Of a DNA stretch of 64,000 nucleotides, positions 15,343-15,496 are shown piece by piece; within the stretch, counting starts at the first letter, position 1; the number at the start of each line of letters is the position of its first letter. This DNA comes from an uncultured Rikenellaceae bacterium (lineage in GTDB: Bacteria; Bacteroidota; Bacteroidia; Bacteroidales; Rikenellaceae): contig CAZRHJ010000004.1 in NCBI GenBank assembly GCA_964600025.1, forward strand, positions 11,833-75,832, in the 5' to 3' direction. Below the pieces are notes generated by a model. That model was given only the letters and a program-made list of their open reading frames with translations. It did not search any database and was not told the DNA's origin. The position numbers and the translations under genes were made by a program.

Positions 15343-15496
15343 TATTGTCTGCTAAAAACGAAACTCGCCTATCTTGTCTATTTCACAGATGCTCATAACT
15401 CACGTACGCCAGTACGCTACGTTATGACCATCTGCAAAATAGCCTAAGAGATCCGAGTTTATTGGGAGCTTGTAAAATTTTTACCAGACAGCAATA
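15343..15496 (+). mobile_element. Repeat family copy D: full-length 154-bp element
   Basis: Best-paired copy. It is flanked by TATTTACCAAC at 15329-15339 and again at 15495-15505. Confidence 0.9.

Follow-up and report, generated by a model that had tools for sequence, protein, structure and literature searches.

Two copies of a repeated hairpin in one stretch of bacterial DNA differ by a base on each arm, and the two changes still pair with each other. Is the fold itself being kept, and if so, by what process? The window, a 64,000-nucleotide stretch of the genome of an uncultured Rikenellaceae bacterium that was analysed as a whole, contains the copy at issue (copy D) and the two copies with which it was compared:

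15340..15496, plus strand: copy D, a complete short-form MITE with one long hairpin, as judged from sequence, ends and fold
15387, plus strand: left-arm base A of the compensated pair (alignment column 44)
15433, plus strand: right-arm base T of the compensated pair (alignment column 90)
8795..8951, plus strand: copy C, a complete short-form MITE with the pair C8842-G8888
51062..51321, minus strand: copy J, of the long form (257 bp), with C51271·A51225

A first-pass annotation had proposed that a C-to-A change on the left arm between copies C and D is matched by a G-to-T change on the right arm, and direct reading of the arms bears this out. Copy C has the left arm CACCGATG at 8839-8846 and the right arm CATCGG at 8884-8889; copy D has CACAGATG at 15384-15391 and CATCTG at 15429-15434. 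In the predicted hairpin, C8842-G8888 of copy C and A15387-T15433 of copy D are pairing partners at the same stem position, and both positions lie inside the same helix in all of the folds that we computed. The difference between the two copies is a genuine double substitution at two pairing partners.

The annotation's count of six differences, including this covarying pair, also agrees with the 96% identity of copies C and D over 157 nt. Two of the six form the compensated pair, one is an uncompensated stem change at columns 51/83 (C-G in D, C·A in C) and three fall in the right terminus. By our own rough estimate, the chance that six random differences include a partner hit that keeps a Watson-Crick pair is ~0.02 (15 pairs of differences × ~45/11781 × 1/3). 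Taken alone, the C/D pair is only suggestive, in line with the annotation's own caution.

Copy J, read on the minus strand, has the arms CACCGATG and CATCAG, which leave a C51271·A51225 mismatch at the same stem position. The annotation had described these arms and the uncompensated mismatch correctly, but its view of copy J as a variant does not hold: C·A is the majority state of the family, present in 50 of the 88 clean copies. Copies C and D are therefore two different 'repaired' states.

Anatomy and parentage of the element

The element at copy D is a MITE, a non-autonomous transposon. Its parts and immediate flanks are:

15331..15339, no strand: left target duplication TTTACCAAC, identical to 15497-15505
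15340..15358, plus strand: left terminal inverted repeat GAGTATTGTCTGCTAAAAA
15357..15462, plus strand: hairpin core of copy D, without similarity to the parent insertion sequence
15478..15496, plus strand: right terminal inverted repeat TTTTTACCAGACAGCAATA
15497..15505, no strand: right target duplication TTTACCAAC, containing the minus-strand stop codon (15498-15500) of the neighboring uracil-DNA glycosylase (UDG) gene

Iterated nhmmer searches of the organism's own draft genome (2.07 Mb, 34.7% GC, 98 contigs, 94% complete) found 295 non-overlapping loci of the family, 126 of them near-full-length copies, which together occupy 31.3 kb or 1.5% of the genome. The short form, at 157 bp, consists of the termini and the hairpin core; the long form of 257-258 bp carries an extra module of ~100 nt ahead of the right terminus. 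The core itself spans ~100 nt and has 38 in-register pairs and a 4-nt loop. Both termini are 19-nt inverted repeats (consensus left TA(G/T)TAYTGTCCGCTAAAAA, right TTTTTACCGGACAGCAATA), and the genome contains 369 such terminus motifs. We set the element ends 6 nt outside the TGTCCG motif, other offsets giving lower duplication scores; with these ends, 23 of 40 complete elements are flanked by a 9-bp target duplication matching at at least 8 of 9 positions. The target 9-mers are 85-97% A/T and have no strong motif. The family is non-coding, with only 1 of ~160 long copies inside an ORF.

Folded as single-stranded DNA, the 157 bp of copy D reach -25.6 kcal/mol (z = -5.4). As RNA, its 106-nt core is predicted to fold at -38.5 kcal/mol on the plus strand and -48.4 kcal/mol on the minus strand. 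The same holds across the family: the sense strand folds more weakly (-28.6 vs -36.0 kcal/mol), the minus strand giving the more stable structure in 129 of 142 copies, and at three consensus mismatches the plus strand has A·C where the minus strand would have G·U. The hairpin is followed by UUUAUU on the plus strand and by UUUCGUUUUU on the minus strand. A simple terminator scan, which handles short stems only, did not call the element, and simple terminator and promoter scans are uninformative for so long a stem. Rfam held no family matching the element, either at gathering thresholds or at permissive E-values.

The parentage of the ends was traced through other genomes. More than 95 contigs, most of them from Bacteroidota, contain the terminus 19-mer TTGCTGTCCGGTAAAAATT, and it was only through this 19-mer, in other genomes, that the partner type was reached. 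In Bacteroides ihuae Marseille-P2824T (L030:5692-7115), inverted terminus pairs bound an element of ~1.4 kb that has a 9-bp A/T-rich duplication (ATTTTTAAT) and encodes a 410-aa IS4-family transposase (NF033592, 200 bits; PF01609 and DUF4372). Its terminus TATTGCTGTCCGGTAAAAA is identical over 19 nt to the right end of our family consensus, and the right terminus of copy D, taken as its reverse complement, is one base off. The ends and 9-bp duplications of the MITE are those of an IS4-family insertion sequence, and an element of the B. ihuae type is the presumed source of the transposase that moved it.

The organism's own genome holds a 474-bp relic (C1:74362-74835) that is bounded by MITE-type termini and includes a transposase fragment. 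This fragment, 123 residues long with one stop, is the only match in the genome to the B. ihuae transposase. Pfam searches of the same genome found no DDE_Tnp_1 (PF01609), rve, Transposase_mut (IS256-type), IS1595-type or Y1_Tnp domain. No intact cognate transposase was found, in an assembly that is 94% complete and split into 98 contigs, so its absence is unproven. Terminus pairs lying 0.9-3 kb apart in the genome were considered as a route to an autonomous partner and rejected, as they enclose ordinary genes. We likewise rejected a REP/REPIN mobilised by a RAYT: PF01797 (Y1) was not found, and regular 9-bp duplications are present.

Between the MITE and either the insertion sequence or the relic, similarity is confined to the termini. 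The ~100-nt core, a long imperfect palindrome, is lineage-specific. A search of 40 relatives, 6 of them from the same genus, found no DNA of the element; the core pattern had no exact match in a public genome contig collection, two element patterns had none in public metagenome contigs, and the family HMM found nothing in 95 loci carrying the IS4-type terminus. The available genomes of the genus are distant, with 52-61% amino-acid identity in UDG and no synteny at copy D. A search for an empty site found that the same-genus loci do not have the two genes that flank copy D, a dihydrolipoyl-dehydrogenase-like (lpd-like) gene and UDG, next to each other. The exact UDG protein has no record elsewhere, and no other strain turned up in the collections searched.

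Covariation across the family

For the family as a whole, we aligned the 169 copies that cover the core with MAFFT, using no structure information (152 columns kept), built a FastTree phylogeny and scored 34 consensus Watson-Crick stem pairs by Fitch reconstruction. The null expectation came from 1000 permutations in which partners were swapped among pairs of the same type while column rates and branch lengths were kept. Doubles that lead from one Watson-Crick pair to another on the same branch number 19, against 7.2±2.4 expected (maximum 15.2; 0/1000 permutations as high), and same-branch co-changes of any kind at stem pairs number 45 against 21.8±4.4. Compensatory changes thus exceed chance co-changes genome-wide. 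The annotation had proposed that the fold is either selected or templated during copying, and this excess supports that pair of options, the choice between them being undecided by the data.

Two pairs stand out. Among the ~100 core columns, the best mutual-information partner of column 35 is column 99, its partner in the stem (0.429; next 0.149). Likewise, among the 88 copies whose right arm is of the standard type, column 44 covaries best with column 90, the pair by which copies C and D differ (0.297; next 0.14). In both cases the two columns are each other's best covarying partners. The states at 35/99 are C-G in 83 copies, A-T in 42, C·T in 12 and others in 13; at 44/90 they are C·A in 50, C-G in 16, A-T in 9, T-A in 7 and others in 6. 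A-T at 44/90 is present on both 35/99 backgrounds and copy D retains the loop base of its own subfamily; a single conversion tract is therefore no explanation.

A set of 58 distinct clean copies gave a similar result, with the caveat that shuffle controls on these copies do not preserve relatedness. Both-side changes occur in 11 of 38 pairs (4.9±1.2 in shuffles), and further pair types number 31 (24.9±1.5); in neither measure, both of which are said to have a false-positive rate of 0-1%, was any of 500 shuffles as high. The covariation score is 0.078, against 0.044 in shuffled copies and 0.011-0.024 when the partners were slid along the alignment. Given all 169 copies together, RNAalifold returned no structure; given the 58 clean ones, it recovered most of the hairpin, and the covariation term was negligible (-0.35). 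Overall, the covariation supports the fold but is weak in extent, with two strongly covarying pairs; the family tends to keep its long internal hairpin, weakly but with statistical support.

The weakness of this tendency is apparent in how often the stem is broken. Single changes from a Watson-Crick pair to a mismatch number 411, against about 20 compensated doubles, a ratio of ~20:1. The paired fraction of the stem drops steadily with divergence, from 0.99 to 0.55, and in old copies the fold is lost. In ~74 copies the right arm lacks 4 nt (…GTTAT----ATATGC), and in ~50 the left arm has TGCTT where others have ATAAC; each variant opens the middle of the stem. The arm variants combine freely, making the family a mosaic. 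In a neutral-decay simulation the observed copies were far more stable than simulated ones, a result that we discount because diverged copies may not descend from the consensus used as ancestor.

Rates of change per column tell a similar story of limited constraint. Stem columns with A/T change less than unpaired ones (4.9 vs 12.5 changes per column, p = 0.005), whereas for G/C columns the difference between paired and unpaired positions is not significant (17.1 vs 21.4). G/C columns mutate ~3x faster than A/T columns, and much of the raw two-fold gap between paired and unpaired rates is base composition. The core is the most conserved part of the element, with 4.9-17 changes per column against 21-33 in the termini.

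Gene context and the forces on the hairpin

The genes around copy D and the remaining family copies in the window are listed here:

13888..15279, plus strand: lpd-like flavoprotein gene, upstream of and co-oriented with copy D (Pyr_redox_2, 225 bits; Pyr_redox_dim, 123 bits)
15294..15334, no strand: native terminator-like hairpin (perfect 19-bp inverted repeat, 3-nt loop), situated past the lpd-like gene and ahead of copy D
15498..16160, minus strand: convergent UDG gene (UDG, 70.5 bits)
8966..9000, plus strand: solo left end of another copy, adjoining copy C
19805..19935, plus strand: further family copy
29516..29645, minus strand: further family copy, diverged
41470..41609, minus strand: further family copy, diverged
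57632..57769, minus strand: further family copy
58852..59001, plus strand: further family copy

Only 1 nt separates the UDG stop codon from where copy D ends on the right. On the other side, the hairpin at 15294-15334 has weak terminator-type matches in Rfam. Copy D is exceptional in its placement, as it begins 60 nt past the lpd-like gene and beyond that gene's own hairpin.

Genome-wide placement was scored on crude gene calls (ATG-initiated ORFs of 100 aa or more; 1634 genes, 86% coding). Convergent genes flank 37.5% of the copies, where the background is 10%. Of the copies between tandem genes, 74 are co-oriented with the genes and 14 anti-oriented (p = 5e-11), and the co-oriented copies start a median of 19 nt past the upstream stop. 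In convergent contexts, 51 of 60 copies sit nearer the stop of the co-oriented gene (15 vs 112 nt). Altogether, ~84% of copies are in sense orientation roughly 15 nt past a stop codon, and they would therefore be co-transcribed unless transcription ends within a few bases. Sense transcription of the elements is what this position, ~15-19 nt past co-oriented stops, leads us to infer.

The compensatory changes follow the same context. Of the 14 private doubles, 13 are found in the 106 co-oriented, stop-proximal copies, a grouping that was made post hoc, after the orientation result, and on the crude ORF calls. Counted as events, the ratio is 13:132 in these copies and 1:147 in the others (p = 0.0007). 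Among copies with at least two stem changes, doubles occur in 11 of 35 co-oriented, stop-proximal copies and in 1 of 33 others (p = 0.003).

Our preferred explanation, which we hold tentatively and at somewhat less than even confidence, is that selection on an RNA hairpin in 3' untranslated regions drives the pattern. The plus strand of the element would be transcribed into the 3' untranslated region of the upstream gene, because most copies lie in sense a few to ~20 nt past the stop. There, the long hairpin may act as a terminator, a 3'-end stabiliser or a processing site, and copies with a broken stem would be slightly disfavored until a second change restores the pair. An RNA function of this kind, with selection rather than templating as the driver, is suggested by the orientation and stop bias, the slower A/T columns of the stem and the concentration of doubles in co-oriented copies, and it has a precedent in the bcr1 repeats discussed below. 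Against it stand the weaker fold of the sense strand, the 411 uncompensated breaks, the disrupted arm variants and the lack of enrichment of doubles on internal branches. Wobble use showed no clear asymmetry: single transitions gave 108 G·T and 87 A·C overall and 32 G·T and 26 A·C in co-oriented copies, neither difference being significant. At a given divergence, co-oriented and other copies are alike in pairing fraction and in minimum free energy (p = 0.65 and 0.23).

A possible but less probable driver is templated correction at the level of DNA. In quasipalindrome template switching, the newly made strand folds back on itself during replication and one arm serves as template for the other, so a one-sided mutation is either erased or copied across, and 'compensatory' pairs arise without selection on function. 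Such switching turns imperfect inverted repeats into perfect ones and leaves paired changes on both arms; it is an established process in E. coli and has been put forward as a way in which inverted repeats of bacteria stay perfect (PMC7202029, PMC5941160). It predicts the observed excess of same-branch doubles, the faster change of mismatched positions (mismatched pairs change ~2.8x faster than matched pairs) and the lack of a G·T vs A·C strand asymmetry. About half of the doubles are of transversion type, compared to ~30% by our own estimate for mutations co-occurring by chance, and some copies, C27:919-1071 for example, appear 'perfected', with arms more complementary than the consensus and an internal loop erased. 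However, the consensus mismatches (41/93, 42/92, 44/90 and 49/85, and G·T at 33/102) persist in the youngest and most numerous copies, and those at 41/93, 42/92 and 44/90 flip in both directions at high rates, not driven towards pairing. The doubles are mostly isolated single pairs and not tracts. Template switching is a mutational mechanism, not an element family, and a location-blind process does not predict context dependence such as the 13 vs 1 split of private doubles; nor would unbiased conversion between arms slow the A/T columns of the stem.

Two further accounts fare worse. It is improbable that no structure-dependent process is at work and that the pattern comes from descent within subfamilies, recombination among copies, hypermutable positions and effects of the alignment, the C/D pair being a coincidence. 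Such an account gains from the relatedness of copies through subfamilies, the mosaic makeup of the family, the hypervariability of columns 41, 42, 44 and 90 (33-46 changes on the tree), the largely compositional gap between paired and unpaired rates, the steady decay of the hairpin with divergence, and shuffle controls on the 58 copies that ignore relatedness. Yet the tree permutations, which keep rates and branch lengths, still leave 19 doubles against 7.2 (0/1000), and columns 35 and 44 each covary best with exactly the base-paired column out of ~100, while nearer columns score far lower. The slid-partner controls (0.011-0.024 vs 0.078) and the pairs and pair types that both exceed all 500 shuffles argue in the same direction. 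Very unlikely, in our judgment, is a role for the hairpin as DNA, in which a cruciform or single-stranded hairpin matters to the element for mobilisation, host-factor binding or the survival of new insertions, and source copies with intact stems leave more descendants. The core is indeed more conserved than the termini, wobble use shows no strand asymmetry and the two strongest covarying pairs define multi-copy subfamilies. But the parent insertion sequence lacks the core entirely, and the DDE transposases of the IS4 family work on double-stranded ends, requiring nothing beyond the termini. Since target duplications are present and no Y1/HUH transposase was found, a single-strand mechanism is unlikely. 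Compensated changes are also no commoner on internal branches (5/105) than on terminal ones (14/267). On the same count, we rejected 'master-lineage' selection as a specific explanation.

Selection on a transcribed hairpin could be taken one step further, to a portable gene-end RNA module. Here, the IS4-mobilised MITE would have put a structured 3'-UTR element, in sense and a few to ~20 nt past the stop, behind >100 genes of one small genome, and the host would maintain the fold copy by copy, because compensatory changes are nearly confined to co-transcribed copies. The module could then serve as a genome-wide terminator or mRNA-stability signal, and the weaker fold of the sense strand (A·C vs antisense G·U) might be part of its function. 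We consider this extension speculative and less likely than not.

Known systems and the meaning of the pattern

Behavior of this kind is already known from ERIC, bcr1, Correia and Porphyromonas gingivalis MITEs, and is not a new principle. The bcr1 repeats of the Bacillus cereus group belong to another phylum, have 5-bp duplications against the 9-bp ones here and share no sequence similarity with the Rikenellaceae MITE. We know of no IS4-type termini in bcr1. These repeats are transcribed and their RNA structure is kept through compensatory changes; MITEs at gene 3' ends more generally are transcribed together with the gene and influence how stable the mRNA is (PMC3184786). Transcription is an observation in bcr1 and a prediction from gene position in the Rikenellaceae MITE.

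The ERIC/IRU elements of Enterobacteriaceae resemble the family here in being imperfect palindromic MITEs (~127 bp) with inverted termini. They are flanked by TA and not by a 9-bp duplication, have no sequence relationship to it, and number about 20-700 in gamma-proteobacteria. Compensatory substitutions in ERIC stems were reportedly described by Wilson and Sharp in 2006. To our knowledge, strict sense placement past stop codons is stronger in the Rikenellaceae MITE than in ERIC. ERIC/IRU elements occupy intergenic regions that are transcribed, close to the 3' ends of genes, and have effects on mRNA stability (PMC3184786).

The Correia elements of Neisseria (NEMIS/CREE) have 26-nt termini, a TA duplication and an IHF site, and are unrelated to the Rikenellaceae MITE in sequence and parentage. 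They are subject to RNase III processing and have terminator activity. They are MITEs of 104-157 bp with short and long forms (Table 1, PMC3184786), and they form long hairpins in transcripts, often co-transcribed at gene ends, where effects on the mRNA are known for them as for ERIC (PMC3184786).

Within the Bacteroidales, the MITEs of P. gingivalis (BrickBuilt, MITE239/464 and others) likewise have only their termini in common with resident insertion sequences. For BrickBuilt, compensatory changes that keep the hairpin have been suggested (PMC4596501). The P. gingivalis MITEs differ from the family here in that their termini are IS5-type (GAGACCTTTGCA), they contain internal tandem repeats, they number 10-20 and their duplications are irregular; the family here has IS4-type termini, ~295 copies and regular 9-bp duplications. 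The IS4-family/DUF4372 element of B. ihuae has the same 19-nt terminus as the right end of the family consensus and 9-bp A/T-rich duplications but is ~1.4 kb long and lacks the hairpin core. Particular to the family described here are its unrelated sequence, the combination of IS4-type ends with a 9-bp duplication and the unusually strict sense placement past stops.

The one-pair hint, spotted by eye, did represent a pattern of the whole family, and that pattern can now be sized: it is real but weak. The family is a clean example, in Bacteroidota, of a MITE that combines borrowed IS4-type ends with an unrelated structured passenger, and it fills 1.5% of a 2-Mb genome. Should templating turn out to be the driver, the family would be a large natural data set on quasipalindrome correction. 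If selection on a transcribed hairpin is the true explanation, more than 100 genes of this organism would have a common, transposon-delivered structure at their 3' ends, and the organism would offer a convenient natural setting in which to study how a mobile hairpin turns into a terminator or an mRNA stabiliser.

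Orientation and folding of the MITE copies

Genome-wide, approximately 84% of the copies of this MITE family lie in sense orientation (the plus strand of the element co-oriented with the gene), with the left end about 10-20 nt past a stop codon. Three copies in the window illustrate the arrangement:

51062-51321 (-), copy J
57632-57769, a further copy
8795-8951 (+), copy C

Across the genome, gaps between tandem genes hold 74 sense copies versus 14 in the opposite orientation, and 51 of the 60 copies in convergent-gene gaps follow the same post-stop sense rule. The 9-mer target is just A/T-rich and near-symmetric and so does not account for the orientation rule. 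The rule could reflect either selection or asymmetric targeting.

The strands of the hairpin core also differ in predicted RNA folding. Over all copies (for example, the core at 15357-15462 in the window), the mean fold is -36.0 kcal/mol for the antisense strand versus -28.6 kcal/mol for the sense strand; in young copies, the values are -46.8 and -34.4 kcal/mol. Three mismatches of the core consensus are A·C in the sense strand and G·U in the antisense strand. Yet the strand co-oriented with genes is the less stable folder.

The junction of copy D with its neighbors

On its right, copy D is bordered by a target duplication (15497-15505) that contains, 1 nt off the element, the stop codon at which the uracil-DNA glycosylase gene (15498-16160, -) ends. 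Therefore, the transcript of this gene must enter the antisense strand of copy D directly, where the stem is followed by a terminal UUUCGUUUUU. On the other side of the element is a further feature:

15294-15334, perfect 19-bp A/T-rich inverted repeat with the center GGGTAGC/GCTACCC, just 3' of the dihydrolipoyl-dehydrogenase-like gene

This repeat probably terminates transcription in both directions and would have been parted from the glycosylase gene when the MITE inserted.

Arrays, mosaic arms and the autonomous partner

Elsewhere in the genome, copies form head-to-tail arrays:

C16:10710-11299
C1:35029-35536
C41:9895-10229
C30:9387-9701

Each contains two to four copies with private variants in common, and the arrays look more like the result of tandem duplication in place than of independent insertions. 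Within single copies, the arms are mosaic in two blocks:

alignment columns 50-56 (copy D, 15393-15399)
alignment columns 83-90 (copy D, 15426-15433)

In the family alignment, either left-arm block (ATAAC or TGCTT) can be joined with either right-arm block (GACCATCAGC or ----ATATGC), and all four pairings are seen, which points to recombination among copies or recurrent events.

Two elements bear on the source of transposase:

L030:5692-7115, Bacteroides ihuae Marseille-P2824T, intact IS4-family element of ~1.4 kb (DUF4372 and DDE_Tnp_1)
C1:74362-74835 (locus L111), own genome outside the window, 474-bp element bounded by MITE-family termini

The B. ihuae element is multi-copy, with at least five more loci in that strain; its 19-nt terminus is identical to the consensus right end of the MITE family, and both are flanked by 9-bp duplications. 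The terminal 19-mer is also found in many Bacteroidales MAGs (UBA1794, RGIG2699, bin_67), frequently at contig ends, and in some cyanobacterial contigs. The 474-bp element encodes a 123-residue N-terminal piece of an IS4-family transposase, 52% identical to the B. ihuae protein and containing one TGA. We conclude that it is a relic of the MITE's autonomous partner.
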